Below, in pieces: positions 2,833 through 18,900 of a stretch of DNA of 48,857 bases. The stretch comes from a virus. Both the position numbers and the translations under genes were made by a program. The stretch's first letter is position 1. The number at the start of each line of letters is the position of its first letter. Where the stretch lies: the UHGV virus genome UHGV-0138835, one strand, 5' to 3'. Below the pieces are notes generated by a model that ran no database searches, was not told the DNA's origin, and saw only the letters and a program-made list of their open reading frames with translations.

Positions 2833-5800
2833 ATGATTTACACAACTGGAACAATTGCCATCAACGGCAATGCTGTTACAGGCACGGGAACAAACTTTTC
2901 CGCGCCGCTTTCTCTCATTCGTGTAGGCTGCACGCTCATTGCAATCGGCAATCCGGTGCAGATCTTTACCATCACAGAAATTAAAAGCGGTACTGAACTG
3001 TCAGTGACGCCAGCAGCTAACCCTGCAATCCCTGCGGGAACAAAATTTAGTATTCTGCTATCTGACTCAATCTCAGTTGATGGTCTTGCTCAGGACGTAG
3101 CTGAAACCCTGCGTTACTACCAGGGCAAGGAAACAGAGATCGCCGCCGCTGTCGAGTGGTGGGAAGATTTTGGCGGAGAAGGTCAGTTGGATCAGCTTCT
3201 TACCAACATTCGCGCAGAAACAGCCAAATCAACCGCCAATGCTCAAAAAACAGAAACTGACAAAAACGCAGCAGAAGCGTCAAAAACAGCGGCTGCAAAA
3301 TCCGCCACGGCAGCGAAAACATCAGAAACCAACGCTAAGGCAAGTGAGACAGCAGCAAAGACAAGCGAAACCAACGCCAAAACGTCAGAGAACAGGGCGC
3401 AAGAATATCTAAATCAAATGGGAAGGCTTACCAGTCCAATGGTTCAATGTGATTGGCCCGTTACAACTGGTACGACTGACGCTTACGTTAAGATAGCTAA
3501 AGTTACCAACCCAGGTAGCAGCTCCTGCCACATGACACTAATGATCACTAATGCCGGTAACTACGGGACAAGTTACGGAAACATTGATTTTGTCGAGATC
3601 TCCGCTCGCGGTTTTCCCGATGAACTGAACGCCGATAATGTATCTAAATACTTGAGTATCCGCCGCTTAGGTTCACCAAATCTGGCAACTGATAATCAGA
3701 TGCGTTATGGGCTTGTTAAGGGCGATAACTTTTTTGAGGTCTGGTGTCGTCAGCGAGCATTTACCGGAAGCGCAAAGGTCGCTGTACTGGCGCAGACTAA
3801 TCAAAACACGGAATTATACATTCCCGAAGGATTTGTTAAACAAGACAATGCACCATCAGGATTTATTGAAAGCCCGGCAGCAAGGATTTACGACCAGGTA
3901 AACAAACCCAGCAAGGCGGATTTGGGCCTTTCTAACGCTATGCTTATAGGCGCTTTTGGTCTTGGCGGTACTGGAATAGGGTTGACTGGTTACATGACTG
4001 ATCAGGAACTACTACAAGAGCTAAGGGCTAAAGGTGGGTGTTTCTGGAGATCAGGAAAACCAACAGGTAGCACGGCGACCATTTATAGCCACGGTTCTGG
4101 TATATTCTCGCGGTGCGCCGATACGTGGTCAGCGATCAATATCGACTACTCAACCGCGAAGGTTAAGGTCTATGCCGGTAACGACAATGGACTTAACAAT
4201 AACACTTTTGCCGTTAATGAGCTATACGGAACTAAAAACAAGCCGTCGAAATCAGATGTTGGACTTGGCAACGTAACGAACGATGCGCAGGTGAAAAAAA
4301 TCGGCGATGTTATGTCTGGTGACCTGGCGATCAAAAAAGGGACACCGTCATTCTTTCTGCGGTCAGACAGTGGAACCGCCCATGTATGGTTCCAAAATGC
4401 GGATCAGACGGAACGCGGCGTTATTTTTGCGCCTACAAATTCTGAGACGCTTGGTGAAGTTCACATCAGGGCTAAAAACGCAAAAGGTGAAACAAACGGT
4501 GATCTTATTGTTCGCCACGACGGGGTGGTTGAGGTTCAGAATCTCACAGCGGCTAAAAAAGCCAAAAGCGTAACCGCAGAATTTGCAAACACAAGCACTA
4601 GCTCCGATGATACCACGGTAAATATCAAAGGATCACAGCATACGCCTTTGGTTTTAACGCGCAACAACACAATTAAAAACTTATCCATTGGGTTTAAGGT
4701 TGATGATGTTGATCAAAAATACCTGGGTATAGCTGGCGACGGTGATTTGTATTTTGGTAGTTATTCTGACCACACAAAAAACAGCAAAGTGATCACACAA
4801 GCAATACTCGATAGCGGGGTAACGGTAGGCGGTAAAACAACCTTTTCTGACCTTGCCACATTCAGTGCTGGTATATATGGGGCCATAGAACCGGAAATAA
4901 TTAACAGCAAGACTGTAGATCTTAACAACCTTGTCATTAAGTCCTCTGATAAAGGTTCAGTTAAGTATTATCAATGCACATCTTCCGGGGCTGGTAACTC
5001 CATTACCAATAAGCCTGACGGCGTAGGCGGTAACTTTTTGCTACGTGTAGAATCTATTCGTAAGGTTACGGATTCAGATTATACAAACTTGCAAACCCTG
5101 GTTGGCACAGACACGAAACAAATATACGTTCGCTATTGTGAAAATGGCAATTGGTCCGCATGGAGTCAGGTTGTTGTTTCAGGAAGGAATCAGGATGTAA
5201 ACGTAAGGTCGTTAACCACTGGTACCCCTGTAAAATCTGGTGGCGGGCAAATTGATGTACTTGGGAGTACGTCAGATTATAGCGCGATGAATTGTACTGT
5301 GCGTGGTGTTGATAGCACTGGAACCAATTCGGCGTGGTCGGTAGGTACATCAGAAAGCACAGGAAAAATGTTGTACCTGAAAAACCACAGAAGCAGCGCT
5401 CAAGTGCTGTTAAATGGCGATGACGGCGCGGTGCAACTACTAAGCGGTACCGTCAACAGTGCTACAGCACAGGCGCTAACCATCAACAAAGATGAGGTTA
5501 ACTCAACTGCCGATTTAGTAATTAGAAAACAAACAGGGACTGGCAGTCGTTTTGCTTTACAGAACGCAGGTAATGCAGAACTACCGTTTTCTGTCAGTGT
5601 GTGGGGTTCCAGTACTCGACAAAACGTTTTTGAGGTTGCAACGTCTGCTGCGTATCTGTTTTATGCGCAAAGAACGCCAGCAGGCCAGTTGTTTGATGTA
5701 AATGGCGCTATTAATTGCACAACGCTGAATCAGTCATCAGACCGCGACCTTAAAGACGATATTCTCGTTATCAGCGACGCGACGAAAGCAATCCGTAAAA

Positions 5801-6150
5801 TGAACGGATACACCTACACGCTCAGGGAAAACGGGATGCCTTATGCTGGCGTTATTGCACAGGAAGTAATGGAGGCGATACCAGAAGCTGTGGGATCGTT
5901 TACTCATTACAGTGAAGAGTTGCAGGGACCAACGGTTGACGGCAACGAGCTACGCGAAGAAACGCGTTATCTCAATGTTGACTACGCCGCAGTAACTGGC
6001 TTACTTGTCCAGGTTGCACGCGAAACGGATAACCGCGTCACCGAACTGGAAGAGGAAAATGCCAGCTTACGCGCTAACATTGCTGTAATGGATGAGCGTA
6101 TCGCAAAACTTGAAGCGCTTGTCAGTAAGTTGACCGGAAGCGAAGAATAA
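2833..6150 (+). CDS. tail fiber protein with C-terminal intramolecular chaperone (peptidase S74-like) auto-processing domain
   Basis: 1105 aa; the C-terminal ~130 aa (DLKDDILVISDATKAIRKMNGYTYTL...YLNVDYAAVTGLLVQV...EEENASLRANIAVMDERIAKLEALV) matches the recalled endosialidase/T5 L-shaped-fiber chaperone domain; SD GGAG 8 nt upstream. Confidence 0.8.
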   Translation: MIYTTGTIAINGNAVTGTGTNFSAPLSLIRVGCTLIAIGNPVQIFTITEIKSGTELSVTPAANPAIPAGTKFSILLSDSISVDGLAQDVAETLRYYQGKETEIAAAVEWWEDFGGEGQLDQLLTNIRAETAKSTANAQKTETDKNAAEASKTAAAKSATAAKTSETNAKASETAAKTSETNAKTSENRAQEYLNQMGRLTSPMVQCDWPVTTGTTDAYVKIAKVTNPGSSSCHMTLMITNAGNYGTSYGNIDFVEISARGFPDELNADNVSKYLSIRRLGSPNLATDNQMRYGLVKGDNFFEVWCRQRAFTGSAKVAVLAQTNQNTELYIPEGFVKQDNAPSGFIESPAARIYDQVNKPSKADLGLSNAMLIGAFGLGGTGIGLTGYMTDQELLQELRAKGGCFWRSGKPTGSTATIYSHGSGIFSRCADTWSAINIDYSTAKVKVYAGNDNGLNNNTFAVNELYGTKNKPSKSDVGLGNVTNDAQVKKIGDVMSGDLAIKKGTPSFFLRSDSGTAHVWFQNADQTERGVIFAPTNSETLGEVHIRAKNAKGETNGDLIVRHDGVVEVQNLTAAKKAKSVTAEFANTSTSSDDTTVNIKGSQHTPLVLTRNNTIKNLSIGFKVDDVDQKYLGIAGDGDLYFGSYSDHTKNSKVITQAILDSGVTVGGKTTFSDLATFSAGIYGAIEPEIINSKTVDLNNLVIKSSDKGSVKYYQCTSSGAGNSITNKPDGVGGNFLLRVESIRKVTDSDYTNLQTLVGTDTKQIYVRYCENGNWSAWSQVVVSGRNQDVNVRSLTTGTPVKSGGGQIDVLGSTSDYSAMNCTVRGVDSTGTNSAWSVGTSESTGKMLYLKNHRSSAQVLLNGDDGAVQLLSGTVNSATAQALTINKDEVNSTADLVIRKQTGTGSRFALQNAGNAELPFSVSVWGSSTRQNVFEVATSAAYLFYAQRTPAGQLFDVNGAINCTTLNQSSDRDLKDDILVISDATKAIRKMNGYTYTLRENGMPYAGVIAQEVMEAIPEAVGSFTHYSEELQGPTVDGNELREETRYLNVDYAAVTGLLVQVARETDNRVTELEEENASLRANIAVMDERIAKLEALVSKLTGSEE

Positions 6151-6179
6151 TGGGTGATGTGCGAAGAACATCGCCGCGC

Positions 6180-6208
6180 GAAACGAGGCTAACGCCTCGT
6201 TTCTTTTT
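6180..6208 (+). terminator. rho-independent terminator after tail-fiber gene
   Basis: gaaacgaggc-taac-gcctcgtttc hairpin followed by TTTTT. Confidence 0.65.
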
Positions 6209-6229
6209 GTGTACCAAATAGTGACCAAA
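6208..6229 (+). repeat. 22-bp perfect direct repeat, copy 1 (tgtgtaccaaatagtgaccaaa); candidate integrase arm-type site / attP-region repeat
   Basis: Exact 22-mer recurs at 6439-6460, flanking a ~210-bp AT-rich tract just upstream of int. Confidence 0.5.
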
Positions 6230-6438
6230 ATGATAAATCAAAAACAAAAACATAACATAACACATTGAATACAAATGAATTTTTCATTAAGTTATCCATT
6301 CAAAAGATAAGTAGGTAGCGCCATTTCTATCATTTCATATCGTGTCACATCGTCACCGTTTCACGTTGATTTCAAAAGAAATATTTATTCTATCGTGTCA
6401 TATCGCTCCCCATCGTGTTACTATCCATGCGTAAAATG

Positions 6439-6460
6439 TGTGTACCAAATAGTGACCAAA
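6439..6460 (+). repeat. 22-bp perfect direct repeat, copy 2; ends 2 nt before the int start codon
   Basis: Identical to 6208-6229. Confidence 0.5.
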
Positions 6461-6462
6461 TT

Positions 6463-7662
6463 ATGCTTACAGATACCAAATTACGAAACATTCACGGCAA
6501 GCCATACGACGGCCCGGAAGAAGTACCGGACGCTGGCGGATTGTCTGCCAGGATAAGCCCGCGAGGAGTTATATCTTTCCAGTATCGCTACCGATTCAAC
6601 GGCAAGCCTCGACGGATGAAGATCGGCACATACGGAGAAATAACACTCAAAGAAGCGCGCGCGGAGGTGGCGGCGCACAAAGAAGTATTAAACTCAGGTC
6701 GAGATCCATCGGTAGCAAAAAGAATGCACCTTTCTCGCGTTACGACACGGGCAACGGTTGAGGATATTGTCAGGGAGTACATGGAATCAACGCAGGCAAG
6801 GAGCATGGTCAACTATAAGCAGGTTGAAGCGATGTTGAATAAGCACGTCATCAGGCCATACGGTAGCTATATAGTCGATGATATGGACGCTATGATGTGG
6901 GAGGGAGTTTTTAGAAAGGTAGCTAATGGTGGTGCGCCAGTTCAGGCGGGAATAGTTCTCAACAGAATGAAAGCGGTAATAAAATACGCCATGCGCCGCC
7001 GCCGCGTGGATCGTGACGACATATCGTTACTACGCGTGAAAGACGTTGGTAAAAACCCAGCGCAAGGGAAGCGGGTTTTGTCAATACAAGAGATTCGCCA
7101 TCTAATCAGCCTTATAGACAGTTCAAAAATGGCGCGTCTAAATCAGATATTGATGAAACTGATTATATTCACCGGATGCAGGACAAGCGAGCTAACAAAC
7201 GCAAGGCGAGAACATTTCGATCTTGATAACTGCGTGTGGACTGTGCCTGGTGCATTGAGTAAGAACAGAAACGAGTTTAAACGCGGTTTATCCGACGTTA
7301 GCGTCGATTTATTGCGTGAGGCTATGGATCTGCATAGCTTTGATTTTGTCTTCGTTCCTGTGCTTTCTGGAAGGGATGAGGCGGTGGACAGAAGCGTACC
7401 GAAAACAGCGGCAAGGGATTTAATGATGAGGATGGGCGGCGAGCCGTGGTCGTGTCACGATCTACGCCGCACCGTGAGGACAAACCTTTCAGCGCTTGGC
7501 GTTGCGCCTCACGTCGCTGAAAAGGTTTTGGGGCATAAGCTGGCGGGGATGTTGGCTATATACGATCAGTATGACTATGTGAGGGAACAAATAGAGGCGA
7601 TGAATAAACTGGCTGATTATTACATGAAGCCCATTGATTTACAAAATGAAATAACGTCCTGA
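6463..7662 (+). CDS. int: tyrosine recombinase / phage integrase (P4-type)
   Basis: N-terminal arm-binding-like region (ARISPRGVISFQYRYRFNGKPRRMKIGTYGEITLKEARAE) and C-terminal catalytic region with HDLRRT...LGH; start taken at ATG 6463 (the track ORF begins at 6415). Confidence 0.85.
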   Translation: MLTDTKLRNIHGKPYDGPEEVPDAGGLSARISPRGVISFQYRYRFNGKPRRMKIGTYGEITLKEARAEVAAHKEVLNSGRDPSVAKRMHLSRVTTRATVEDIVREYMESTQARSMVNYKQVEAMLNKHVIRPYGSYIVDDMDAMMWEGVFRKVANGGAPVQAGIVLNRMKAVIKYAMRRRRVDRDDISLLRVKDVGKNPAQGKRVLSIQEIRHLISLIDSSKMARLNQILMKLIIFTGCRTSELTNARREHFDLDNCVWTVPGALSKNRNEFKRGLSDVSVDLLREAMDLHSFDFVFVPVLSGRDEAVDRSVPKTAARDLMMRMGGEPWSCHDLRRTVRTNLSALGVAPHVAEKVLGHKLAGMLAIYDQYDYVREQIEAMNKLADYYMKPIDLQNEITS

Positions 7663-7838
7663 TAACGGTAAAGAGAGCCGCCGTGCTTTAATGCTGGCAT
7701 TCCCTTAACAGGTTCAGGGAATGGAGTACCTGAATCCTTCCATTTTTTAACCAGTTTAAAAAAGGCGGACTTACTAAGCCCGCCCAACATTTTTTGCACT
7801 TGCTCACGATTAATAAGAATTGCGCCGATCTTATCCAT
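7620..7838 (-). CDS. excisionase / AlpA-family small DNA-binding protein (putative Xis)
   Basis: 72 aa, HTH-like, convergent with and overlapping the int 3' end; family assignment from pattern only. Confidence 0.45.
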   Translation of the reverse strand: MDKIGAILINREQVQKMLGGLSKSAFFKLVKKWKDSGTPFPEPVKGMPALKHGGSLYRYQDVISFCKSMGFM

Positions 7839-8500
7839 TATCTTTTCCCCGTGTATTCAACGTGTCCGATACATCCATCAATAATAGCTTGCGCCATGTT
7901 GCGATAATCGCACGAAAATTCGTTGTCGCGGTTAAAGTTAATCTCTTTCGCCGCATCTTCACCGATAACCTTAGTAGCTAGTGCGAAAGCTATTTCAGCA
8001 AGCGCCTTTTCTTTCGGATCTACATGCAGCTTGAAAGCGCATGTTGTCCATGATAGCGGCCTCTCTAAGCATAAATCTTCCTTGCTTTCACATATAGCCC
8101 ATTTGTCACCAACATATTTAAATTTAACGACATCTAGAACCGTTCCGCTCGTAAGACCTACACAATCAAGCCACACGCCAACTGGAGGCTTTTCGCCTGC
8201 CAACCATTCCGTTTTTTCTTGTTGCGTTTCGCAATCATGCCGCTCATCTTCGATTAATTCATCAATGATTTCACTTTCTTTATTCATGCCGTCATCATCC
8301 TTATTCGATAAATTAGCGTATTTATCAAATTTCCAGCTTGCAGCCATAACCGAATAAGTGCCGCCAGTGTCAGCGCGAACACCCAATAAATAGTATGATC
8401 CAAAATTATATTCTGTGCGGCATGTTGTTACCTCAAACGATGGGTAACACTCAGGGTTAGTGCGATGGCTAATCACGCCAATTGCTTTAAGTTTATTCAT
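7838..8500 (-). CDS. hypothetical protein (220 aa), integrase-proximal accessory gene
   Basis: Long ORF, translationally coupled to downstream gene (TAATG overlap); no family recognised. Confidence 0.4.
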   Translation of the reverse strand: MNKLKAIGVISHRTNPECYPSFEVTTCRTEYNFGSYYLLGVRADTGGTYSVMAASWKFDKYANLSNKDDDGMNKESEIIDELIEDERHDCETQQEKTEWLAGEKPPVGVWLDCVGLTSGTVLDVVKFKYVGDKWAICESKEDLCLERPLSWTTCAFKLHVDPKEKALAEIAFALATKVIGEDAAKEINFNRDNEFSCDYRNMAQAIIDGCIGHVEYTGKR

Positions 8501-8514
8501 TTGCTTATCCTCGA

Positions 8515-8691
8515 TTACGCCACAGTTACATTGTCAACTTTGATAAAATATTCAGGATGATTTTCTATTTCGTTCTTGAAGTGCGCGTGACACAATCGCC
8601 ACTCCCGCGCCTGGTTGTGAAAATAGTAAACGTATTCGCCATCAATCTTGTATAAAATGCCTGTAGGTTTAGCCATGTAGTAACGAACCAT
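8515..8691 (-). CDS. hypothetical small protein
   Basis: Track ORF 8515-8745 trimmed to the internal ATG that overlaps the NinB stop by one base. Confidence 0.3.
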   Translation of the reverse strand: MVRYYMAKPTGILYKIDGEYVYYFHNQAREWRLCHAHFKNEIENHPEYFIKVDNVTVA

Positions 8692-9122
8692 TATTGCCCC
8701 CAGCGTTTTATAAATTCCTCGTTTAACTTCGTATCGCCAGACCACTGAACACCATGTTCAGCGCCGAACGAGTAGATCAGTTCGATTAATTCGCTAAATT
8801 CTGCTTTACCCATCCGGCTGGTTGACGTTCCCAGCACAACAAATCCTGATTTATCAAGATTAGGGACGACGCCATATTTTTTAAGCCCGGCAGTAAATAC
8901 CGCTTTCCAGTCTTCAGGTGACAGTTTTTTGCCGTACCAATTAACCTGATCGCTAATGTCGGTTAACAGCGCCCATAAAAGGCTATTTTGACTAAGCGAG
9001 CGGGTTTTCTCCTTGATGGTAATAATCAGCGGGCTTTTGCTATCAGGCTGGATTTCACTTATCTGCCTGATAGCGTTTTCTTTTACTGCGTCGTTTACTA
9101 TTTCAAATCTTATTTGCCTCAT
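8691..9122 (-). CDS. ninB: NinB recombination protein (lambda NinB/Orf family)
   Basis: Strong similarity to recalled lambda NinB (…RSLDQN..LWA.L.D.S.QV.W.G…VPNL…GFVV.G.STSRM…FSELIELI..FG…GV.WS). Confidence 0.85.
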   Translation of the reverse strand: MRQIRFEIVNDAVKENAIRQISEIQPDSKSPLIITIKEKTRSLSQNSLLWALLTDISDQVNWYGKKLSPEDWKAVFTAGLKKYGVVPNLDKSGFVVLGTSTSRMGKAEFSELIELIYSFGAEHGVQWSGDTKLNEEFIKRWGQ

Positions 9123-9837
9123 GGTTAGATAACGCCTCGTTTATTCTATTTGATGCAATTTCGAAATATTTTTCATCCTTTTCTATGCCGATAAAACGCC
9201 GATTAGTATTAATGCACGCAACGCCAGTAGTCCCGCTTCCCATGCAGTTATCAAGAACTAAATCACATTCGTTGGTATATGTTTTAATTAAATATTCCAT
9301 AAGCGCTACAGGCTTCTGTGTTGGGTGCAGCTTCACCCTATCTCGCGTAAACTCTAGTACCGTAACTGGATAGCGTTCGCCGCCACTCACCGTAGTTACA
9401 ATACCCGATGGATTGTAGTTAGATGTTTCCCCTCCTTTTTTACATTTATACGGCTTAAATCCCTCCCTCATTTGAGGGTTGTAAGTTGGCGGCTTATCAT
9501 AGAACACCAACACATTTTCATGATCCTTTAGCGGAGCGCGTTTAGCGTTCAGAAACCCTGTTCCAGCCTCTTTGCGCCAAATCCACTCATATCGAAGCAT
9601 ACCAAGATTGGACGCGCCTAAAACCTTGTCAAACGGCGTCTGGGCAGTCAGCACAATCGCCCCACAGCTTATGCGCTTGTATTCATCCCATAGAGACGGC
9701 AAATCAATAACGCTATCCCATTTGTTTCGCGTAGTCCCATACGGCAAATCACACAAAATCAAATTAATACTACAGTCTGGAATAGACTTCATAACCTCCA
9801 GGCAATCGCCTAACAATAATGCAATACCTTTACTCAT
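9103..9837 (-). CDS. DNA methyltransferase, beta-class N6-adenine/N4-cytosine (orphan)
   Basis: N-terminal motif IV DLPY (DPPY-like) and C-terminal motif I LDNCMGSGTTGVAC. Confidence 0.8.
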   Translation of the reverse strand: MSKGIALLLGDCLEVMKSIPDCSINLILCDLPYGTTRNKWDSVIDLPSLWDEYKRISCGAIVLTAQTPFDKVLGASNLGMLRYEWIWRKEAGTGFLNAKRAPLKDHENVLVFYDKPPTYNPQMREGFKPYKCKKGGETSNYNPSGIVTTVSGGERYPVTVLEFTRDRVKLHPTQKPVALMEYLIKTYTNECDLVLDNCMGSGTTGVACINTNRRFIGIEKDEKYFEIASNRINEALSNHEANKI

Positions 9838-9846
9838 GTTATAGCC

Positions 9847-10044
9847 TCATAATACACCGTTACTATTTTTCCACTGTGCCCGCGCATACATAATCGCCTG
9901 CAAAGAAATTAGCCGCGAGCTTGTCATGAAAGCGCCTTTTAAATATTTCATATCAACCGTGACAGGCTTATCAGGATCGTCGCCGCGCATGTATTCCGCA
10001 ATCGTGCTCAAATCCTCAACGGTTAAATCTAATTCCTTGTTCAT
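9847..10044 (-). CDS. hypothetical protein (65 aa)
   Basis: ORF in operon context. Confidence 0.3.
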   Translation of the reverse strand: MNKELDLTVEDLSTIAEYMRGDDPDKPVTVDMKYLKGAFMTSSRLISLQAIMYARAQWKNSNGVL

Positions 10045-10054
10045 GACTTACCCC

Positions 10055-10261
10055 TTACACAATCCGCATTGTGTTTCGTAATTCCCCGCGCAGCGCCTGC
10101 AAAGCGTAACGAATCGGCACAAAAGCCCGGTTAAATTTTACGTGCCTGTATTTGCGCATTAGTGGAGGCGTATAAACCATCGCGCCGCAAGAATTGCATG
10201 GAAATTTAAAGTGAGATTCATCAATGAATGTTTCAACTGAATAAAAAATTACACGTCTCAT
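10055..10261 (-). CDS. hypothetical protein (68 aa), Cys-containing
   Basis: ORF in operon context. Confidence 0.3.
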   Translation of the reverse strand: MRRVIFYSVETFIDESHFKFPCNSCGAMVYTPPLMRKYRHVKFNRAFVPIRYALQALRGELRNTMRIV

Positions 10262-10818
10262 AATTCCAACCCCGTTTCGCCGTTAAGTTTTTCGATCTCA
10301 AACACTGGTTTATCAGGAAGCAGGCCGTTATTTTTACGGTATTCGTTTAATAAGTTACTAAAATTAAATGCGACAACATTTGAATAACCATAAAAACGCG
10401 CGTTTCTGAAAAAATATTTACCGTCAAACTTATTAACGGTTAATAGATTCTCACTTCCTAACATCCGTAATATTCTGCCGACCTTTCCTTTGTTTATATT
10501 AATATTCAATTCATTCTTAACATCTTCCGCTGAAAAATACCCGCTGCTATTTGAAAACAAAGGGATTATATCCCTTATCGCCATTTCTCTTACTGACTTC
10601 AAGCAATATGATAATCTTTTACTATTTAGATCTACTTTTATAATAACGCCATCAGAAACCAAAGCATCCAAAGCGCAAATTATTTCACCTTCAGGTCCAG
10701 GAATAGATTTAACTATCGTTCCCTCACCTGAAATAACAGCGTCATTTAAAAAATCAATTATTTGTTGTTGGTATGAAGTTTTCATTTTCAGCCTCGCTTT
10801 AAACGCGATAACAGCCAC
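10258..10818 (-). CDS. hypothetical protein (186 aa) in a visibly AT-rich segment; possible acquired accessory gene
   Basis: Sequence is markedly AT-rich by eye compared with the flanking helicase and methyltransferase genes; no family recognised. Confidence 0.4.
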   Translation of the reverse strand: MAVIAFKARLKMKTSYQQQIIDFLNDAVISGEGTIVKSIPGPEGEIICALDALVSDGVIIKVDLNSKRLSYCLKSVREMAIRDIIPLFSNSSGYFSAEDVKNELNININKGKVGRILRMLGSENLLTVNKFDGKYFFRNARFYGYSNVVAFNFSNLLNEYRKNNGLLPDKPVFEIEKLNGETGLEL

Positions 10819-10861
10819 CAGAAAGCGGTAAACTTTCCGGTAAGCCGTTTGCTCATATTGA

Positions 10862-12277
10862 TTAAAAAGATGCGTTATTCTGATTGTTTCGTTGGCTAAA
10901 TCGGCTTGTACGATGATTCATGGACTGAATGCACGCGGCGGCGGCCTTACCCTGGTCGCATGGTAATATATTGCCGTTGTCATCAAACCGCTGGTAAATA
11001 GTACCAGTTTTCCCGTGACGGTTTTTAGATACAATTATTTCCATGTATTCGCGTGCTACAGACTGCTCATCGTAATAACCATCGCGGTAAACCATGATGA
11101 TCCTGTCAGCGTCTTGCTCAAGGTTCCCTGAATCTCGAAGATCTGAATTATTAGGGCGCTTGTTAGGTCGTTCCTCAACGCGGCGGGATAACTGGGCCAG
11201 CGCCAACACTGGTACACGCAATTCTTTCGCCATCATCTTCAACGACCATGACAATTGCCCTACAGCGAGATCGTGACGTTCGGCCTTAGCCAGCTTCATC
11301 AACCCGATGTAGTCAATCATTACCATACCCAGGTTGGGGTGTTCCTGTTTCATCCGTTCCGTGGTGGCGCGTATTTCCTCAACCGTTAACTGCGACGCGT
11401 CAACGATCCACACATCAAGATTAGCAAGTGCACTCATACCCTGGCCAACATGCGCCCACCCCTCATCATCAAGTTTTACCGGATTGCGCAGGCAGTCAGT
11501 TGATAAATTGCCAGCGCCAGCTATAGCGCGCTCAGTCATCTGATCGAGCGACATTTCAAGCGTGAATAACAAAACACCAACCCGCTGATCCTTGCTGCCA
11601 GGGTAAGGGCGCTCAGCAGCAGCGCGGGCAATCGCCAGCGCCAACGCAGATTTACCAGACCCAGGGCGTCCGGCGAGAAGTACCAAATCAGTGGCGTTAA
11701 TACCGCCTAACATTTCGTCGAGCGGTTCTATCCCTGTTTTGATGTTGTCAGAATTGACACCGCATTCCATGCGCTTGCTTAAAACCTCTGTGTATTCCTG
11801 TACCGCATCGCGCAACAGAACAGGGATAATCTTGTCTTTCGTTACCTTTAATTTTGAATACCGGGAATCAAAATCTTTCATCGTCTCTTTGACGACCTCA
11901 AGCGTACCCGTTTCCAGTTTGTAGCGCATATCGTCGATGAGTTCCAACATCTGACGCCGCTGGTGCTCTTCCCGTAGTAGCTGTGCGTACCCCTTCAGGT
12001 TGGCAGCAGAAGGACACGATCGCGCCGTTTGCATTAGCGGTACAAAGTTTTCGTTGCCAATCTCATCGCCAACCAATAACGCATCGATAAGATTCCTGTT
12101 TCTGGCTTGCGCCCTGATAATTTCAAACGCACGTTTATACAGCGGAATCGTGAACACTTCAGGATCAAGAGTGGCGAGAACATCTTGCGCGTTAGGAGTT
12201 AGGCCGCCTAACAGCAGCCCGCCGATAACTGACGCTTCACGTTCCTGCCGTAGTGAGTTTATTTGCTCAGTTACCAT
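10862..12277 (-). CDS. replicative DNA helicase, DnaB family
   Basis: N-terminal DnaB-like ERAVLGGLLL-type motif (EASVIGGLLLGG), Walker A GRPGSGKSA, length 471 aa. Confidence 0.85.
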   Translation of the reverse strand: MVTEQINSLRQEREASVIGGLLLGGLTPNAQDVLATLDPEVFTIPLYKRAFEIIRAQARNRNLIDALLVGDEIGNENFVPLMQTARSCPSAANLKGYAQLLREEHQRRQMLELIDDMRYKLETGTLEVVKETMKDFDSRYSKLKVTKDKIIPVLLRDAVQEYTEVLSKRMECGVNSDNIKTGIEPLDEMLGGINATDLVLLAGRPGSGKSALALAIARAAAERPYPGSKDQRVGVLLFTLEMSLDQMTERAIAGAGNLSTDCLRNPVKLDDEGWAHVGQGMSALANLDVWIVDASQLTVEEIRATTERMKQEHPNLGMVMIDYIGLMKLAKAERHDLAVGQLSWSLKMMAKELRVPVLALAQLSRRVEERPNKRPNNSDLRDSGNLEQDADRIIMVYRDGYYDEQSVAREYMEIIVSKNRHGKTGTIYQRFDDNGNILPCDQGKAAAACIQSMNHRTSRFSQRNNQNNASF

Positions 12278-12295
12278 TATGTTATTTCCTCCGGT

Positions 12296-13438
12296 TTACA
12301 AAATGGAATATTCAGGGTAATAAACAAAGCGCCCTATCTCACCATGATCCGGGCTGTAAATAATAACCGCCGCCAGGCGACGCGACCGCCATCCGCCATT
12401 AGTAGAATAAGCATCCTTACCGGCTAACGTGCCGTGATACTCAACAACGCCCAACGATGATTCAATCATCCGTTGATGATGCCAGTGCCCGCAGTGGGCG
12501 TAAACCGCCGCAGACTTCCCGAAATCATCGCGCCAGTCAGACACGCAAGCAGCCAATAAATTTTCCGGTTTTTTGATAGTGTGCCCGTGGTGGTAAGCAA
12601 GGAATGTTTTTCCGTACTGTGTGTGGTGGACGATGGCAGGGGACACATCAACCGTCACGCGCGGTTCATCTTCGTAAAAAGCCGCCAGCGACGCACGTAG
12701 CCATATCATTCCTGACTGGTCGTGATTGCCGGATAACACCTGTATTTCAACATCCTTATGATTTAATAACATCTTCCCTACCGCCCGCCGGACCGACCGG
12801 ATCGCTACATAAACAAGTTTTGCGTAGCGTGAATCGCAATCAAGTACGTGATTGCTTGATGGCGTAACTGGCAACAGACCGTCTGTGTGAAGAATATCCC
12901 CACCGAGAAGCAATACAGCTTTTTCAGACATCGGCGCAGCGCCTACAGCGTAGTCAAAGAAGTCATTCAACACGCGCTCAGCAATCCCAGTGTCGTAGCT
13001 CTCGCCGCATTCAGCTTTATGAGCAAGCGCCCCGATATGCAGATCAAATACCGGATAAAGGGCAAGGCTTTTTTGAAAATCAATTTCAGGCACTGGCACG
13101 GCCTCCGCGCGTGGTATTTCTTCCGTGAATGCGTCGCGGGCAGCTTCCATTACCTTTTCCATTTCATCGCGGTCACGGGCTGTTTTAATCCAGCGCATGA
13201 CTGTCTTCCCGTCTTTATCGACAAGAACAGATTCACCAGTAACGCCAAAACCCGGTGCGCGGCGCGTTGATAACAAACCGCGTTTCGCCAGCTTTGCGCC
13301 CAGACGCTCGACGTTGCGTTTTGACATGCAATATTTTTCAGCGATCTGTTTATACGTAAGACCGTTGTTATATTCAGCGATCAATTGCTCATCGCTGATT
13401 TTTCTTTGCGACATAATGTTAATTCCTCCAGTTAACAA
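12296..13438 (-). CDS. HTH domain fused to calcineurin-like metallophosphoesterase
   Basis: N-terminal HTH (LTYKQIAEKYCMSKRNVERL); phosphoesterase motifs DLH, GGDILHTDG, SGNHDQ, HHGH, GHWHH; start may be the internal ATG at 13414. Confidence 0.6.
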   Translation of the reverse strand: MLTGGINIMSQRKISDEQLIAEYNNGLTYKQIAEKYCMSKRNVERLGAKLAKRGLLSTRRAPGFGVTGESVLVDKDGKTVMRWIKTARDRDEMEKVMEAARDAFTEEIPRAEAVPVPEIDFQKSLALYPVFDLHIGALAHKAECGESYDTGIAERVLNDFFDYAVGAAPMSEKAVLLLGGDILHTDGLLPVTPSSNHVLDCDSRYAKLVYVAIRSVRRAVGKMLLNHKDVEIQVLSGNHDQSGMIWLRASLAAFYEDEPRVTVDVSPAIVHHTQYGKTFLAYHHGHTIKKPENLLAACVSDWRDDFGKSAAVYAHCGHWHHQRMIESSLGVVEYHGTLAGKDAYSTNGGWRSRRLAAVIIYSPDHGEIGRFVYYPEYSIL

Positions 13439-13447
13439 AATGTATAC

Positions 13448-14191
13448 CTACTTACACGCAAAAAGTTCAGATACCCAAAGCTGCCCCTTAGCGGTAAATA
13501 GTGATTGGACGTAACCTTCAGCCGAACATTTTACCACTCCATAGCCTTTTTCTACGAACCACTGTTTGAACATACGCCCACCGCGCTTAATTCGCGTATC
13601 GTACACGTCAACCTGTTCAAGTTTTTTGTTGAGTTGCGTAGCAGTCATACCCAAAGGCTTAGCGACCTGTGTAGCGTTGCGATGCTGTTCGTTTTTTGCA
13701 ATAGCATTATAAACAGCCGCTTTCGGTGCTAATTCCTTATTTTCCAGCGCCAGACGATCAACTTCTTTCTGTGCTAATAGTTTTTGCTCTACCTCATCCG
13801 CCCATGCGCGAGCAGCCGCAACCGGATCAGTGAAGTCCGGCAAAGCTGGTTTAAAACCGTAATGTCCATTTTCACGCAAAGCAGGGAGAACTTCTTCACA
13901 CACCCAATCCTGGAAGCGCTCAGCAAATTCTATTTTTGATCGCATCACAAGGCGGTACATATCTGATTCATGAATTAGCGTTACGCCTTGCGGTTTAGGG
14001 TCAAAACCCAAACACTGCATTTCACCGTATTTGATTTTAATCAATGACTTACAATGTTGTTTTAGAGCGTCCGCAGGTCTGATATACCCCAAAGCCCGCG
14101 CCACATCCATTGCAACAAAAGCAGGTTTACCATCATAAATTACAGCAGTGATTTTATTGTCATCAAAATTAAAACACATCAACTCAGACAT
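13448..14191 (-). CDS. antirepressor, Bro-N / KilA-C domain protein
   Basis: N-terminal Bro-N signature (FNFDDNKITAVIYDGKPAFVAMDVARALGY); start taken at ATG 14191 with GGGGAA SD. Confidence 0.7.
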   Translation of the reverse strand: MSELMCFNFDDNKITAVIYDGKPAFVAMDVARALGYIRPADALKQHCKSLIKIKYGEMQCLGFDPKPQGVTLIHESDMYRLVMRSKIEFAERFQDWVCEEVLPALRENGHYGFKPALPDFTDPVAAARAWADEVEQKLLAQKEVDRLALENKELAPKAAVYNAIAKNEQHRNATQVAKPLGMTATQLNKKLEQVDVYDTRIKRGGRMFKQWFVEKGYGVVKCSAEGYVQSLFTAKGQLWVSELFACK

Positions 14192-14323
14192 TGTAATTTC
14201 CCCGCAAAACGCTCTACAACGCAAAAATCCCACCGCGTAACACGTTCGCACATGTTGCAGTGTATTATTGCGCCAGAGGCGCTATCAGGTGGCTAATTTT
14301 TGATTTACAGACCGGTAGGTAGG

Positions 14324-14425
14324 TTATGGATTGACTAGAAGGAACAAACCGCCGAATAAGGCGACGTTAACAGCGATTGCCGCAGCGATGGCAAAAGCCA
14401 TGGCGAAAACGTGTTTACCGTCCAT
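14324..14425 (-). CDS. possible micro-ORF (33 aa), hydrophobic single-helix peptide MDGKHVFAMAFAIAAAIAVNVALFGGLFLLVNP
   Basis: Read by hand in the gap between the antirepressor and replication genes; weak SD. Confidence 0.25.
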   Translation of the reverse strand: MDGKHVFAMAFAIAAAIAVNVALFGGLFLLVNP

Positions 14426-14558
14426 TTTAAAATTCTCTCTGTAACGCTCTATAACGAGCTAATCGCAAAAAGGTAAGCAAGTATAGCACCACATGCGATT
14501 TATCTCGCTGGCGAGCTTGTTTTGCTGGTTATTTTGGGTTTTTGTGGATCGTGGTTAG

Positions 14559-15611
14559 TCAAAGAGCGCCAGCGCGTGTATCGCGTAGCGTTTTTGGTTT
14601 AAGCAGGAAATCAAGTGTCGCAGTGAAGCCATCGCCGAAGTAAAAATCTGAAGCCTTGTTTTTGAATGCTTCGAAGTAGGCGATAAAGCCGTTAATGCTT
14701 TTGTCTTTCAGGTAGTCAGTGAACGCATAGATCTTGCGTTCAAGATCCCGATCAAGTTCAGCAGGTGGCAACAGGCCGTCAAACGTGATGTTAAACTCTT
14801 CCACCACATCGGCAGCGTTTACAGTAGCTGATAGCTTGCGCCATTGTTCAGCGTCAGCCAGATACCCATCGAATTTAGTTACCCGGCAAATGTTAACAGG
14901 CTTAGGTGTTCCGCCACGGCTACGCCATTGCGTTAAAGCCCACTCAATCACTAATGTGATCTCATCCTCCGTATATGCTTTACGTGTTTTTGTTTCTGTC
15001 AGTAGTTCGATGAACGGTTTAGCATCACGACATTTACATCCTGCCTTGTCGTTGTAGAATGCCAGGCAACGCAATGCCGCTTCGTTTACGCCATCCTGAT
15101 TGAACATTTTTTGTTCATTTTCGACAATACACGAAGTGTATATATCTTTTTCTCTTTCTTTTTCTATTTCTAATTCTAATTCATGACCCTTTCCTGACCC
15201 GGTCATGACCCTATCATGACCTTTTTGTGTTGGATTGATTAACTTTTCTAATTTTAATTGCTCCTTCGCTGTGTTTATGGCGGCCCTGTAAGCGCTTTTA
15301 GAAGTCATTGATTGGTCCAGCCTTTTCAATAACTTTAAACAAGTTATGTGGCCTTGAGAACATTCAAACAAACCAATTTCGATGAAGTATTTCATCATTT
15401 CTTCTATACGTTTTTCAGTAGATCCGACGTTTCGCGCAATTATTCTTGCGTCATGTCGTAGGTCAAAAGTTAGATTGTGCTGATCTACGTCATAAGTTAT
15501 TAGTTCTAGGCAATACCAATAAAGCCCGTATCCTTCCAGTCCATAATCTAATAAAACGTTTTGAAGTTTTTCATCGCGGTTCGCATCGCTATCATGCTTA
15601 AACCACTTCAT
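14559..15611 (-). CDS. replication initiation protein (replisome-organizer-like N-terminal domain), contains internal iterons
   Basis: N-terminus MKWFKHDSDANRDEKL…GLEGYGLYWYCLE typical of phage replisome organizers; iterons in the linker region. Confidence 0.6.
   Translation of the reverse strand: MKWFKHDSDANRDEKLQNVLLDYGLEGYGLYWYCLELITYDVDQHNLTFDLRHDARIIARNVGSTEKRIEEMMKYFIEIGLFECSQGHITCLKLLKRLDQSMTSKSAYRAAINTAKEQLKLEKLINPTQKGHDRVMTGSGKGHELELEIEKEREKDIYTSCIVENEQKMFNQDGVNEAALRCLAFYNDKAGCKCRDAKPFIELLTETKTRKAYTEDEITLVIEWALTQWRSRGGTPKPVNICRVTKFDGYLADAEQWRKLSATVNAADVVEEFNITFDGLLPPAELDRDLERKIYAFTDYLKDKSINGFIAYFEAFKNKASDFYFGDGFTATLDFLLKPKTLRDTRAGAL
15138..15221. repeat. putative origin of replication: AT-rich tract plus four 9-bp iterons (TCATGACCC / TCCTGACCC) at exact 11-bp spacing
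   Basis: Iterons at 15181, 15192, 15203, 15214, immediately after the tract tatatatctttttctctttctttttctatttctaattctaat; located inside the initiator gene as in lambda O. Confidence 0.5.
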
Positions 15612-15614
15612 AGA

Positions 15615-15869
15615 TCATTCCTCCGGCAATGCAATGTCATAAATGTCGCCGTATTCGTCAGCGCGTTTAATGAATCCTTTGCGGATCAATGAATTTAATG
15701 CGTCAACAGTAGTATGCAGTGGTAGTTCGCACACTTTTGCGATCTCTTCGCGTGAAGCATGTGCGCGGCCTTTGTTGTCTGCCTTTTCTGCAAACGCAAT
15801 TAAGACAAGTTTTTGGATCGGGCTGTTAAGTTTTACGTTCCATACTTCATTCATCATGTGCATACTCAT
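15615..15869 (-). CDS. winged-helix HTH protein, first gene of the leftward early operon (Cro position)
   Basis: 84 aa, divergent from the repressor gene; HTH-like segment SREEIAKVCELPLHTTVDALNSLIRKGFI. Confidence 0.5.
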   Translation of the reverse strand: MSMHMMNEVWNVKLNSPIQKLVLIAFAEKADNKGRAHASREEIAKVCELPLHTTVDALNSLIRKGFIKRADEYGDIYDIALPEE

Positions 15870-16174
15870 CTTGTTTTTCTCCTATGGTTAGAGTGAACGC
15901 GCGGGCGGGCATCCCATTAGCATTAGATAGCAGTGACTGACCGCTCAACAGATCCCGCCGTTGCGTGATATTTGTTTTTCGCTTCGCAGCGACACCGGAT
16001 TTTTAAAGAGCTTAAGGAATTGGCCTTTTGTGCTTTCCTTTATCTTTTTTCTTGCATCATTGCAACTATGGCCTTACCTTGTCTGCAAGTTTACATAATG
16101 GCTTTAACAGGTCAAGGCTTGAAAAACACGTTTTGTGACTTGCATCAAACTTTTTTAGGTTATAGGGTAGCGAC
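15870..16174. promoter_or_regulatory. divergent immunity regulatory region (OR-like) with repeated CTTGCATCA motifs and a candidate leftward boxA/boxB
   Basis: CTTGCATCA at 16051 and 16139; TTTACATAATGG at 16090; minus-strand boxA-like GCTCTTTAAAAA (plus 16000-16011) followed by a hairpin at plus 15979-15992. Confidence 0.45.
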
Positions 16175-16822
16175 ATGAAAACAAAATGGTATGACTTAGC
16201 AAAGCAGCTCATGCGGGCGCAGGGCATGAGTCAGGATTCATTGGCTGATCTCATGGGGATAACCAAAGGTGGCCTTTCGCACTGGCTGAACGGTCGCCGT
16301 GAGCCAAATCTTGAAGATATTGCGCGGATCATGCGGGCGCTTGGGCGTCGGCAGTTTACTGTCACACATGACGGGATGGTTATCGATGATTCTGTTTCTA
16401 ACACGTTACCGGGAGCGCCACCGCGTGATTTAGGCAGTTACCCGGTTGTTGACTGGAAGGATGTAGCAAACAATATGGAAGGCACATGCCGATCAACATT
16501 GCCACACATTACTACTAGCGTTATTTGTTCGGATGATAGTTATTGGCTGGTTGCTAAAGGTGAATCAATGAACGCACCGCAGGGGTTAAGCATCCCGGCG
16601 GGGACTATGATACTCGTTGACCCGCACGCGCCAGCTATTGACGGAAAACTTGTTATAGCACAACTGGAGGAAGGGCAGATACCTACGTTTAAACAGTTGA
16701 TTATTGATGGAGGCCGAAAACTTTTGCGTTCACTGAATCCGTTGTATCCGCCGATCCCTATGAATCCAGAGTCAAAAATCATTGGCGTGGTTGTTGATGC
16801 GAAGATCGTAAACCTGCCATAA
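16175..16822 (+). CDS. CI-type repressor (HTH_XRE + LexA-like S24 peptidase domain), P22 C2-like
   Basis: C-terminal domain closely matches recalled P22 C2 (GSYP…SEDS.WL…G.SM.AP.GLSIP.G..ILVDP……GKLV.A.LE…..TFK.L..D.GRK.L..LNP.YP.I…….KIIGVVVDAK..NLP). Confidence 0.9.
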   Translation: MKTKWYDLAKQLMRAQGMSQDSLADLMGITKGGLSHWLNGRREPNLEDIARIMRALGRRQFTVTHDGMVIDDSVSNTLPGAPPRDLGSYPVVDWKDVANNMEGTCRSTLPHITTSVICSDDSYWLVAKGESMNAPQGLSIPAGTMILVDPHAPAIDGKLVIAQLEEGQIPTFKQLIIDGGRKLLRSLNPLYPPIPMNPESKIIGVVVDAKIVNLP

Positions 16823-16827
16823 ACATT

Positions 16828-16853
16828 AGCCGCCTGGTGGCGGCTTTTCTTTG
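16828..16853 (+). terminator. rho-independent terminator after repressor gene
   Basis: agccgcc-tggt-ggcggct hairpin followed by TTTCTTTGTT. Confidence 0.6.
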
Positions 16854-16946
16854 TTCGAAAAAACACCAAAACGTAAACAGAAAACGCTATTTATTGTTTA
16901 AATATCAATAGTATATAAAATATTTTAAAAAAGTATACAAAATGGA

Positions 16947-16975
16947 TTGACTCGATGTTATACGGGGAGTATATT
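16947..16975 (+). promoter_or_regulatory. candidate sigma70 early promoter (pL-like): -35 TTGACT, 17-bp spacer, -10 TATATT
   Basis: Hexamers and spacer read directly; upstream of the nut site and the N-like gene. Confidence 0.5.
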
Positions 16976-17016
16976 GCGAGTCAAAGGAGGCAGCAAGGCA
17001 GGGAAGGAAGGTTACT

Positions 17017-17054
17017 TGCTCTTTAATAATCTGGTCAGCCGCTGGAAGTGCGGC
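17017..17054 (+). promoter_or_regulatory. candidate nut site: boxA-like TGCTCTTTAA plus boxB hairpin GCCGC-UGGAAGU-GCGGC
   Basis: boxA 17017-17026 resembles the recalled rrn/lambda boxA; 11-nt spacer; boxB stem-loop 17038-17054. Confidence 0.5.
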
Positions 17055-17110
17055 AATTAACGAAGATGATTTTTTATTAAGTTTCATCAAGGATATACGG
17101 AGATCAGATT

Positions 17111-17401
17111 ATGAGCGTTACAATTATGTATGGAAAATGTGATAGCAAAATGAACGCCAGGGAACGCAGAAGGATAAAAAGAGAAAACGAAAGAAAATCA
17201 TCACCTGCAATTAATAAAACAGACAATGTGGATAAAGCTATTCGATTTGCAAACGAGGAAAGGTGCAAACCAAATAGCATTAAAGAACGTCGCAAAGGAT
17301 CAGTAAAATGGTATACGGAAAATGAAAGCGGCAGCTACTACCACGCAACGCAACCACGCCATTTAGGGGAGAAACCCCTGGATAAAGTCCGTTACCATTA
17401 A
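17111..17401 (+). CDS. N-like transcription antitermination protein (P22 gene 24-like)
   Basis: N-terminus MSVTIMYGKCDSKMNARERRRIKRENERK resembles recalled P22 gp24 (MTVITYGKS…AKTRRHERRRKLA) with an arginine-rich motif; first gene after promoter and nut. Confidence 0.6.
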   Translation: MSVTIMYGKCDSKMNARERRRIKRENERKSSPAINKTDNVDKAIRFANEERCKPNSIKERRKGSVKWYTENESGSYYHATQPRHLGEKPLDKVRYH

Positions 17402-17550
17402 TACAAAATGTAAACATTCGGAGGTTACATTATGGTTATCGAGGCGCTTCAATTCAAACTGACAGTAGCGGAAATGCTTCATGATGCCGAAATGTGGAGC
17501 GCCGCGAATAAAGCCTTATACATAGTGTTAACAGCGAAGGAGATTAAAGA

Positions 17551-18605: not shown

Positions 18606-18618
18606 TTCAATAGGTTAG

Positions 18619-18900
18619 GTGATGGGTTGTTATTTAAAAGCACCGCCACCGCCGCGAACAAAAGAGCAAGTATTGAAAGAAGCCCGTGATCAAATTGATC
18701 GCGGGTTTTTTATTGCTGGTAGTTCGGCTGAACGGATGGCGAAAAGATTTAGTGACCTGTACGCAAAACAAATATGGTTCGACAACTGGCAGGCAAGTTT
18801 TTACCCACCGCAAAGAAAACCGGATATGCACTGGCCTGAATATGTCGATCCACGCATGCGCAAATATCGCGGGCGTATGGGCCAGGTTATTAACGATTAA
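18619..18900 (+). CDS. hypothetical protein (93 aa)
   Basis: ORF in tightly packed + strand operon. Confidence 0.35.
   Translation: MMGCYLKAPPPPRTKEQVLKEARDQIDRGFFIAGSSAERMAKRFSDLYAKQIWFDNWQASFYPPQRKPDMHWPEYVDPRMRKYRGRMGQVIND

Follow-up and report, generated by a model that had tools for sequence, protein, structure and literature searches.

An AT-rich stretch of 972 nt (9847–10818) lies in the leftward replication/recombination operon of the virus genome UHGV-0138835, and raises the question of whether foreign genes have been inserted there. The whole stretch of DNA analysed, 48,857 nucleotides long and called the window below, is a mEp021-like (mEpimmI) temperate coliphage; this group, recently described, is reported to be frequent in the human gut (PMC11893012). 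Repressors are nearly identical within the mEpimmI group. The initial annotation had read the AT-rich stretch as a horizontally acquired accessory block of three genes of the kind that often serves defence or counter-defence. The three minus-strand ORFs were confirmed, at 10258–10818 (186 aa, from GTG 10818), 10055–10261 (68 aa) and 9847–10044 (65 aa). The first, referred to below as the winged-helix gene, sits directly downstream of a DnaB-type replicative helicase gene of the P22 gp12 type (10862–12277, minus strand; Pfam DnaB_C, 6.9e-76), and the order in the window is helicase, winged-helix gene, 68-aa gene, 65-aa gene, an orphan N6/N4 DNA methyltransferase (9103–9837, minus strand; Pfam N6_N4_Mtase, 5.4e-28) and NinB.

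The 972-nt block has a GC content of 0.382, compared with 0.460 for the window, which places it among the lowest 0.7% of segments of equal length, the global minimum being at 10131–11102; this low GC exceeds chance. It is found in the 186-aa ORF, which has the lowest GC among 82 ORFs (0.342, z = -2.6; GC3 0.305, z = -2.2), with a deficit at all three codon positions. In a 120-nt profile, GC stays on a plateau of 0.30–0.38 across about 10200–10840 and is back to 0.42–0.51 over both small ORFs, whose values (0.425 for the 68-aa and 0.434 for the 65-aa ORF) are no different from those of the methyltransferase (0.429) or NinB (0.433); a sharp step is present only on the helicase side (helicase, 0.498). 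In conclusion, low GC is confined to one gene and does not extend over a block: the proposed AT-richness relative to the flanks holds for the 186-aa ORF, whereas the GC of the two small ORFs is within the normal range.

The product of this gene is probably a 175-aa protein starting at ATG 10785 (gene 10258–10785, minus strand), and not the 186-aa form: a GAGG precedes this ATG, and the 175-aa form is the one listed in RefSeq and public databases. All three genes are core in the mEpimmI group, as they are present and syntenic in 41/41 related IMG/VR viral contigs, in mEp phages and in RefSeq prophages; the reading as an accessory block is not supported within this group. In mEp021 (MH706966; PMC11893012) they are mEp021_08, mEp021_07 and mEp021_06, which follow one another as in the window, with the helicase gene on one side and methyltransferase/ninB on the other; a term search of the mEpimmI description (PMC11893012) returned no passage on them. 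The winged-helix gene was matched in 18 E. coli genomes, where nearly all copies adjoin an annotated 'replicative DNA helicase'. Two distant relatives (P0027 and P0150, 26% identity) keep the order DnaB, two-winged-helix gene, 62-aa gene and NinB, with a different initiator gene (HTH_36, or a 291-aa protein without a Pfam match, with or without a 370-aa protein); the helicase beside P0027 is 55% identical to that of the window. At this distance, a homologue of the 68-aa gene still follows the helicase and winged-helix genes. Such distant (D-class) relatives were not found in E. coli complete genomes. Salmonella phage 101962B_sal5 has three ORFs of the same lengths after its helicase gene, but their sequences are unrelated and the resemblance is a coincidence.

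The three genes differ in how they compare with the mEp021 group. Identity is 91% for the 68-aa protein and 82–89% for the 65-aa protein, and the winged-helix protein is almost unchanged over its last 30 or so residues, whereas its N-terminal 135 or so residues are highly divergent, without detectable DNA homology; the 38–40% identity of the whole protein comes mostly from the tail, and the GC of the gene is 0.34 in the window versus about 0.43 in mEp021. Accordingly, blastn homology to mEp515, mEp021 and MagusPhagus ends at about 10347–10380 and resumes exactly at 10785. Three alleles were distinguished among related phages: A (the window), its sister B and the common allele C. Tiles covering 10451–10750 are missing from 33/33 allele-C contigs, and the GC of the N-terminal part is 0.32–0.35 in alleles A and B versus 0.43–0.46 in C. 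The first 135 or so codons of the minority allele A (10380–10785, minus strand) have the composition of a lower-GC lineage, and the gene is AT-rich because this phage carries that allele.

Alleles A and B are 70% identical, with dS above 1.4 and dN/dS of 0.12–0.17, and within allele A dN is 0 at a dS of about 0.1. By these substitution rates the alleles are old and under purifying selection, and this deep divergence is set in backbones that are otherwise 85–95% identical. The exchanged unit is about 405–435 bp long and encodes the N-terminal, two-winged-helix part of one gene. It is an allelic replacement by recombination inside a conserved gene, and not an inserted block. Horizontal acquisition, which had been suggested for the whole region, is thus retained for this N-terminal part, where DNA homology breaks and the GC is that of the allele, and is abandoned for the rest; the low-GC allele is ordinary phage mosaicism, not a defence island. 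Two scans of genome contigs, and a scan of viral sequences with P0027, did not find a donor of the low-GC allele.

Conserved DNA on either side of the cassette may have served as recombination flanks for the allele swap, namely the spacer upstream and the tail-coding DNA downstream (10258–10379, minus strand). The spacer between the helicase and winged-helix genes is 76 nt long in the window, and 22–76 nt across relatives, including those with another initiator gene. It contains a stem-loop (10810–10849, minus strand): the RNA of 10780–10865 (minus strand) folds with -29.2 kcal/mol (z = -4.18), and 0/200 shuffled sequences were as stable. Among 27 distinct spacer variants, drawn from alleles A, B and C, the stem-loop hardly changes, and most of the differences fall in the loop; a consensus scan did not call it a terminator. 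When tiles over 13 kb of the window (6000–19000) were compared with 41 loci, no segment tracked the allele and no allele-specific partner or DNA site was found, and two variants of the helicase C-terminus assorted independently of the winged-helix allele.

The variable gene at this locus is the methyltransferase. Tiles 9251–9850 are missing from 41/41 IMG/VR relatives. RefSeq prophages also lack the gene, and in them the 65-aa gene is followed directly by ninB, whereas mEp021 and mEp515 carry the methyltransferase. The methyltransferase is therefore the real accessory insertion at the locus. It is also the only neighbour that matches PADLOC-DB v2 (MTase_II and orphan methyltransferase profiles), in which the 175-aa, 68-aa and 65-aa proteins matched 0 families at E up to 0.1. 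A role of the three genes in defence or counter-defence, as first proposed, does not emerge from this search; its sole link is the position of the winged-helix gene in the slot of lambda ren, together with a winged-helix fold whose likeness to Ren is weak in sequence.

Both small ORFs are, from their patterns of variation, ordinary-GC conserved coding genes of the same operon. The 68-aa gene (10055–10261, minus strand) was found at full length in 44 loci; of its 32 distinct sequences, 31 are intact, and variable sites number 24, 21 and 52 at the first, second and third codon positions. Its start overlaps the stop codon of the winged-helix gene (ATGA), and the two are probably translationally coupled. 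Its product is basic (pI 10.4), with an invariant motif YTPPLxRKY; it matched no family in Pfam, NCBIfam, PHROG or PADLOC, and its single-sequence structure model is unusable (pLDDT 43.5). A 43% identical homologue occupies the equivalent position in the distant relative L048, where an unrelated 63-aa ORF replaces the 65-aa gene. The 65-aa gene (9847–10044, minus strand) is intact in 25/25 distinct sequences (24, 20 and 47 variable sites by codon position) and encodes an acidic protein (pI 5.1) that matches phrog_21123, a family label without function (3.1e-10).

None of the three proteins had been recognised at first, and indeed no Pfam or NCBIfam model scored above its cut-off for any of them; yet the 65-aa protein is a phrog_21123 member, and the winged-helix protein has a predicted fold. 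Its AF2 model (mean pLDDT 76) contains two helix-helix-helix-wing units, WH1 (residues 1–62 or so) and WH2 (about 75–128), followed by a conserved C-terminal tail (129–175). The best Pfam match of the window protein is PF08100, with 22.3 bits for a cut-off of 25.6, and sequence searches of PDB, Pfam and NCBIfam returned only sub-threshold generic HTH matches. An exhaustive profile search of 1.84 billion representatives gave 7 matches, all in one narrow family, and no wider family. Tandem winged-helix structures (the C-terminal WH domains of SelB, RPC34/RPC62, ESCRT-II subunits) align with 10–18% identity, large rmsd and unrelated biology; these matches reflect the generic winged-helix fold only. 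Similarly, the model contains two winged-helix domains as in the WH1-WH2 of plasmid Rep proteins, a generic resemblance, and no Rep/O family model matches. The protein as a whole is neutral (pI 6.35, net charge 0), but its two recognition helices differ in charge, with no K/R and three D/E in WH1 and four K/R and no D/E in WH2.

The tail, …LNEYRKNNGLLPDKPVFEIEKLNGETGLEL, hardly varies between alleles A, B and C, and its motif Y-R-K-x-N-G-L-L-P…F-E…K-L-N is retained in P0027 despite 26% overall identity. Its AF2 confidence is low (pLDDT below 56), as would be expected of a flexible or partner-dependent segment. As the tail is also conserved in DNA (some 94% across the final 87 nt, as read off the allele sequences), part of its constancy could stem from recent recombination and not from constraint on the protein. 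Only chance short matches were found between the tail and lambda O/P, P22 gp18/gp12 or the window's own replication proteins.

The AT-rich island is a minority low-GC allele of a core, helicase-linked tandem winged-helix gene, and we infer that its product is an accessory of the replication module, a reading that we consider probable. The protein would be a replication accessory factor positionally equivalent to lambda ren. According to a preprint, Ren is 'likely involved in DNA replication', and both Ren and O make two-hybrid contacts with Rex proteins (bioRxiv 10.1101/2021.04.19.439022). WH2, with its basic recognition helix, would contact nucleic acid, and WH1, whose 'recognition' helix is acidic, would serve for contacts with proteins. 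Through its invariant tail the protein would bind a partner shared by the whole group, either the phage helicase, the co-translated 68-aa protein or a replisome protein of the host. The exchangeable two-winged-helix part would determine a specificity by which the alleles differ. In P22, the order is 18-12-ninA-ninB, with no winged-helix gene after a helicase 56% identical to that of the window; a helicase of the P22 gp12 type thus does not, in general, need this protein. A bolder version, which we find unlikely, sees in this protein the founder of a class, so far undescribed, of specificity factors coupled to the helicase in temperate enterobacterial phages. Its tail (YRKxNGLLP…FE..KLN) would then bind the phage's DnaB-type helicase or a conserved protein of the host replisome, and ancient balanced alleles would choose the exclusion system or the DNA or protein target. 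The protein would be functionally analogous to Ren, but with two domains, and would link replication to escape from exclusion by prophages.

Lambda Ren confers resistance to Rex exclusion. By analogy, the winged-helix protein could protect an infecting or induced phage from abortive infection or exclusion by resident prophages, old alleles escaping different systems. The gene occupies the ren slot, after the replication genes and before ninB (lambda O-P-ren-ninB), a slot that carries unrelated cargo in other P22-like phages, and alleles as divergent as these in backbones so similar agree with such a role. The alignment of Ren to the WH2 region and the name 'MarR family' given by NCBI to some Ren homologues are consistent with Ren being a small winged helix. 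Seven of 10 family members match phrog_142 ('Ren-like exclusion protein') at 4e-4 to 5e-3, but the window protein has no match and in no relative does the matched stretch pass alone; hhalign gave a probability of 4% with lambda Ren alone and 18.8% for the family against a 13-sequence Ren alignment. Membership of the Ren family is not established by these comparisons. In addition, PADLOC is empty, the dN/dS given above reveals no diversifying selection at the level of whole domains, and the gene is core and helicase-linked, unlike accessory (moron-type) phage genes, which are usually sporadic. Counter-defence as the function of the protein is thus improbable.

A role as helicase loader or adaptor, in which the tail binds the phage DnaB-type helicase and the winged helices deliver it to the initiator-origin complex, is no better placed and seems unlikely. 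Small loaders such as SPP1 G39P and DciA combine a folded N-terminal domain with a flexible helicase-binding C-terminal tail, an architecture that a folded N-terminal part and a conserved, low-confidence tail would fit. The gene keeps its place 22–76 nt downstream of the helicase gene whatever the initiator, and no recognisable loader (DnaC/DnaI or lambda P type) is annotated in the mEp021 replication operon. However, the winged-helix protein itself has no Pfam, NCBIfam or PHROG match to helicase loaders (DnaC/DnaI AAA+, lambda P), its tail is not similar in sequence to lambda P, lambda O or P22 gp18, and P22 gp12 has no such neighbour. Furthermore, the C-terminal variants of the helicase do not co-vary with the allele, and about 25% identity in the body of a loader would be unexpected while initiator and helicase remain about 90% identical.

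The homologue in phage MagusPhagus is annotated as a MarR-type regulator, which would act as a dimer on an operator and control the downstream early genes. Each of the 10 aligned members of the family matches phrog_1687 ('MarR family transcription regulator') over positions 3–153 of 162, with E-values of 1e-17 for P0027 (the best), 2.7e-10 for allele C and a weak 0.006–0.011 for the window allele, which is joined to the other members by the common tail and by synteny. There are sub-threshold MarR and HTH matches in Pfam and PDB, the recognition helix of WH2 is basic, and the gene is closely preceded by a conserved inverted repeat. The family label agrees with a winged-helix fold, but the name is an annotation transfer: MarR proteins have a single winged helix between dimerisation helices, whereas the AF2 model of the window protein has two tandem units and a low-confidence tail. 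With the MarR models PF01047 and PF12802, the window protein gave no match whatever and one of 10 relatives gave a sub-threshold MarR_2 match (E 8.5e-4). The inverted repeat is identical across alleles that are about 25% identical in their winged-helix domains, and is therefore not an allele-specific operator; the neutral charge of the protein also argues against this reading, which is very improbable.

The origin and initiator appear to lie elsewhere than in the AT-rich gene, as a 350-aa gene with a Lin1244_N match contains four iterons of about 11 bp (15180–15225) beside a pyrimidine/AT-rich run (region 15141–15225). An origin inside the AT-rich gene was rejected: the repeat search of 9800–10900 found only short two-copy matches expected by chance and no repeat family of more than two copies, and Tandem Repeats Finder found none there. 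That the ORF is a cis-acting element (replication origin, promoter or H-NS-bound silencing region) and not a foreign allele is hardly credible since, although the segment is the AT-richest of the window and lambda ori places iterons and an AT-rich region inside gene O, the convincing iteron array lies in the Lin1244_N gene, promoter-like sites are fewer than in shuffled sequences (2 versus 9.0 expected), the common allele C is not AT-rich, and the GC deficit affects all three codon positions of a gene whose protein is under strong purifying selection.

These results correct the picture of the locus: the island comes down to one mosaic allele of a core gene linked to the helicase, and the mobile accessory gene is the adjacent orphan methyltransferase. 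For the mEpimmI group, they define one hypervariable gene within a replication operon whose remainder is 85–95% conserved, and, given that repressors are nearly identical in this group, an old allelic polymorphism elsewhere may mark a second determinant of specificity or compatibility. The findings are unsurprising for the biology of temperate phages, and the function of the winged-helix protein is one that we infer; the gene nevertheless offers a tractable relative for the poorly understood ren slot of lambda.

Compared with known systems, the winged-helix protein shares with lambda Ren its place in the operon, an alignable WH2 region in a small protein and a weak profile similarity, but Ren has 96 aa and aligns as one winged-helix unit, whereas the window protein has 175 aa, two units and a distinct conserved tail. 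The organisation of the gene recalls the mosaic modules of lambda-type O. Unlike O, it has no iterons in or near it, no co-varying DNA site, and a separate initiator gene that does contain iterons. As in O, however, a diverged N-terminal module (in O, the origin-binding domain) is fused to a conserved C-terminal part within one gene, and, as in other lambdoid mosaics, this module is bounded by conserved DNA and swapped among similar backbones.

The AT-rich feature in the leftward early operon is ordinary temperate-phage mosaicism in an uncharacterised, narrowly distributed winged-helix gene. By DNA and protein comparisons the window falls within the mEp021-like (mEpimmI) coliphages, which one account of the group describes as temperate, non-lambdoid and Nus-dependent (PMC11893012). 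The operon lies on the minus strand and runs from the Lin1244_N-type replication protein gene (14559-15611, -) through genes encoding a Bro-N/KilAC antirepressor (13448-14251, -), a 380-aa protein matching phrog_704 (12296-13438, -; 1e-136) and a DnaB-type helicase (10862-12277, -). Directly after the helicase come three ORFs of 186 aa (the winged-helix gene, 10258-10818, -), 68 aa (10055-10261, -) and 65 aa (9847-10044, -), all confirmed where the initial annotation had placed them, then the N6/N4 DNA methyltransferase gene (9103-9837, -), the NinB gene (8691-9122, -), further small genes and the integrase.

All three ORFs had been described as AT-rich. The GC content of the 972-nt block (9847-10818) was 0.382, compared with 0.460 for the window, which ranks it among the lowest 0.7% of windows of that length (global minimum, 10131-11102). 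The 186-aa ORF had the lowest values of 82 ORFs (GC 0.342, GC3 0.305; z = -2.6), whereas the 68-aa and 65-aa ORFs (0.425 and 0.434) were at the level of the methyltransferase (0.429) and NinB (0.433) genes. In a fine profile, a plateau of 0.30-0.38 extended from about 10200 to 10840 and GC was normal across both small ORFs. The observation is thus only partly confirmed, because the dip is confined to one gene and steps sharply on the helicase side only (helicase 0.498).

DNA homology with mEp021-type phages extends across the helicase gene and reaches the ATG through the 76-nt spacer, is lost from 10785 to about 10380, and returns in the tail of the winged-helix gene and in downstream genes. 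Compared with the mEp021 type, the last ~30 residues of the protein are almost invariant and the first ~135 highly divergent (38-40% identity overall). Three allele classes were counted among 41 viral contigs: A, that of this window (2 contigs; N-terminal GC 0.32-0.33, GC3 0.25-0.28), B, ~70% identical to A (6 contigs; 0.34-0.35 and 0.28-0.31), and C, the mEp021 type (33 contigs; 0.43-0.46 and 0.39-0.49). Complete E. coli genomes contributed 7 A-type, 3 B-type and 8 other alleles. Within A, the N-terminal 135 codons gave dN = 0 and dS ~0.1; between A and B, dS was 1.4-2.0 and dN/dS 0.12-0.17. It follows that the alleles are old and functional, and have recombined among backbones at conserved flanks. 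Base composition points to evolution of the low-GC allele in a lower-GC lineage; a search for its donor found none. Horizontal acquisition, proposed for the block as a whole, is supported for this gene segment, with its homology break and low-GC allele, and not for an accessory block. This account of evolution and structure has good support.

The three genes are real and core, not accessory as first suggested: they are syntenic across mEp phages, MagusPhagus and RefSeq prophages, and present in 41/41 related IMG/VR contigs. Both small ORFs have stayed intact in almost every distinct sequence, and their variable sites show third-position bias (24/21/52 by codon position for the 68-aa gene, 24/20/47 for the 65-aa gene). 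The variable gene at this locus is instead the methyltransferase, an accessory insertion found in 0/41 IMG/VR contigs and in none of the RefSeq prophages examined, in which ninB directly adjoins the 65-aa gene. This orphan N6/N4 enzyme is carried by mEp021 and mEp515, is in part ~79% identical to Klebsiella phage genes, and is likely an anti-restriction accessory. In RefSeq prophages PGAP leaves the 68-aa gene unannotated, as a 212-nt gap (4839-5050 in locus L004, 3347-3558 in L056), despite its conservation, intactness, third-position-biased variation and homolog in a distant lineage.

Translation of the winged-helix gene likely starts at ATG 10785, preceded by GAGG, rather than at the less likely GTG 10818; the resulting 175-aa form is given in RefSeq and in a large protein collection. 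The 'recognition' helix of the first winged-helix unit is acidic (0 K/R, 3 D/E), that of the second is basic (4 K/R, 0 D/E), and the whole protein is neutral. Its stop codon overlaps the 68-aa gene start (ATGA). Upstream, the spacer transcript contains a strongly conserved 17-bp stem-loop (10810-10849, -; -29.2 kcal/mol for 10780-10865, z = -4.18), nearly invariant over 27 spacer variants, with differences mainly within the loop; TGTTTTCG follows it in many relatives. It may act as a weak terminator or serve as a site of processing or regulation.

Elsewhere in the operon, the antirepressor slot is highly variable: tiles 13451-14200 match few relatives, whichever the allele class, and in mEp021 the slot codes for a zinc-ribbon protein instead. 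The 380-aa protein gene adjoins the helicase gene in most relatives and is missing from locus L048; the relative in L052 has weak N-terminal HTH and metallophosphatase matches. An HNH/homing endonuclease gene separates the two genes in mEp515 (L001 6082-6636) and mEp021 (L002 6080-6583) and is absent from the window (corresponding site ~12277-12296). The helicase C-terminus (10862-10960, -) has two variants, …NHRTSRF(S/N)QRNNQNNASF and …QQRPAASRFSPRNNQNNASF, which assort independently of the winged-helix allele.

A defence or counter-defence island, the function first suggested, is not borne out, and ordinary mosaicism accounts for the feature. Defence profiles did not match the block proteins, and no curated family passed threshold for them. 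An origin inside the winged-helix gene was also rejected, as it contains no iterons and a good candidate origin lies within the Lin1244_N gene, at 15141-15225. There, four ~11-bp CATGACC-type (TCATGACCC-like) repeats (15180-15225) adjoin a pyrimidine/AT-rich run (15141-15182); 15001-15500 is the window's other deep GC dip (0.380). In PHROG scans the winged-helix family matched phrog_1687 (best 1e-17) and, weakly, phrog_142 'Ren-like exclusion protein' (4e-4). Profile-profile comparison with a Ren alignment gave a probability of just 18.8%, too low to establish Ren membership. In a preprint, ren is characterised as likely to take part in replication, and Ren and O are reported to make two-hybrid contacts with the Rex proteins (bioRxiv 10.1101/2021.04.19.439022). 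Our best reading is that the winged-helix protein is a replication-module accessory; hypothetically, its constant tail would dock on a constant partner and its exchangeable winged-helix body would set allele-specific specificity. Real evidence weighs against this reading: no partner or site co-varying with the allele was found, and P22 does without such a gene. The interest of the locus lies in an old allelic polymorphism within a replication operon that is otherwise conserved, and in a possible parallel with lambda ren.

The winged-helix family is very narrow: 1.84 billion proteins included 7 representatives of it. Its distant members P0027 and P0150 (26% identity to the window protein) come from a sister lineage of phages, in which the genes follow one another as DnaB helicase (55% identical), two-winged-helix gene, 62-aa gene (product 43% identical to its 68-aa homolog), NinB and integrase. 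Initiators vary in that lineage (HTH_36, or a 291-aa protein without Pfam match), and a 370-aa protein is present or absent; since the order is retained while initiators differ, the helicase linkage is older and stabler than any initiator linkage. P22 has ninA and ninB immediately after a 56%-identical helicase; in lambda, ren occupies the equivalent slot, and another P22-like phage has unrelated ORFs there. Seen broadly, the post-replication slot is variable; within mEpimmI and its sister lineage, the winged-helix gene is a fixed companion of the helicase.
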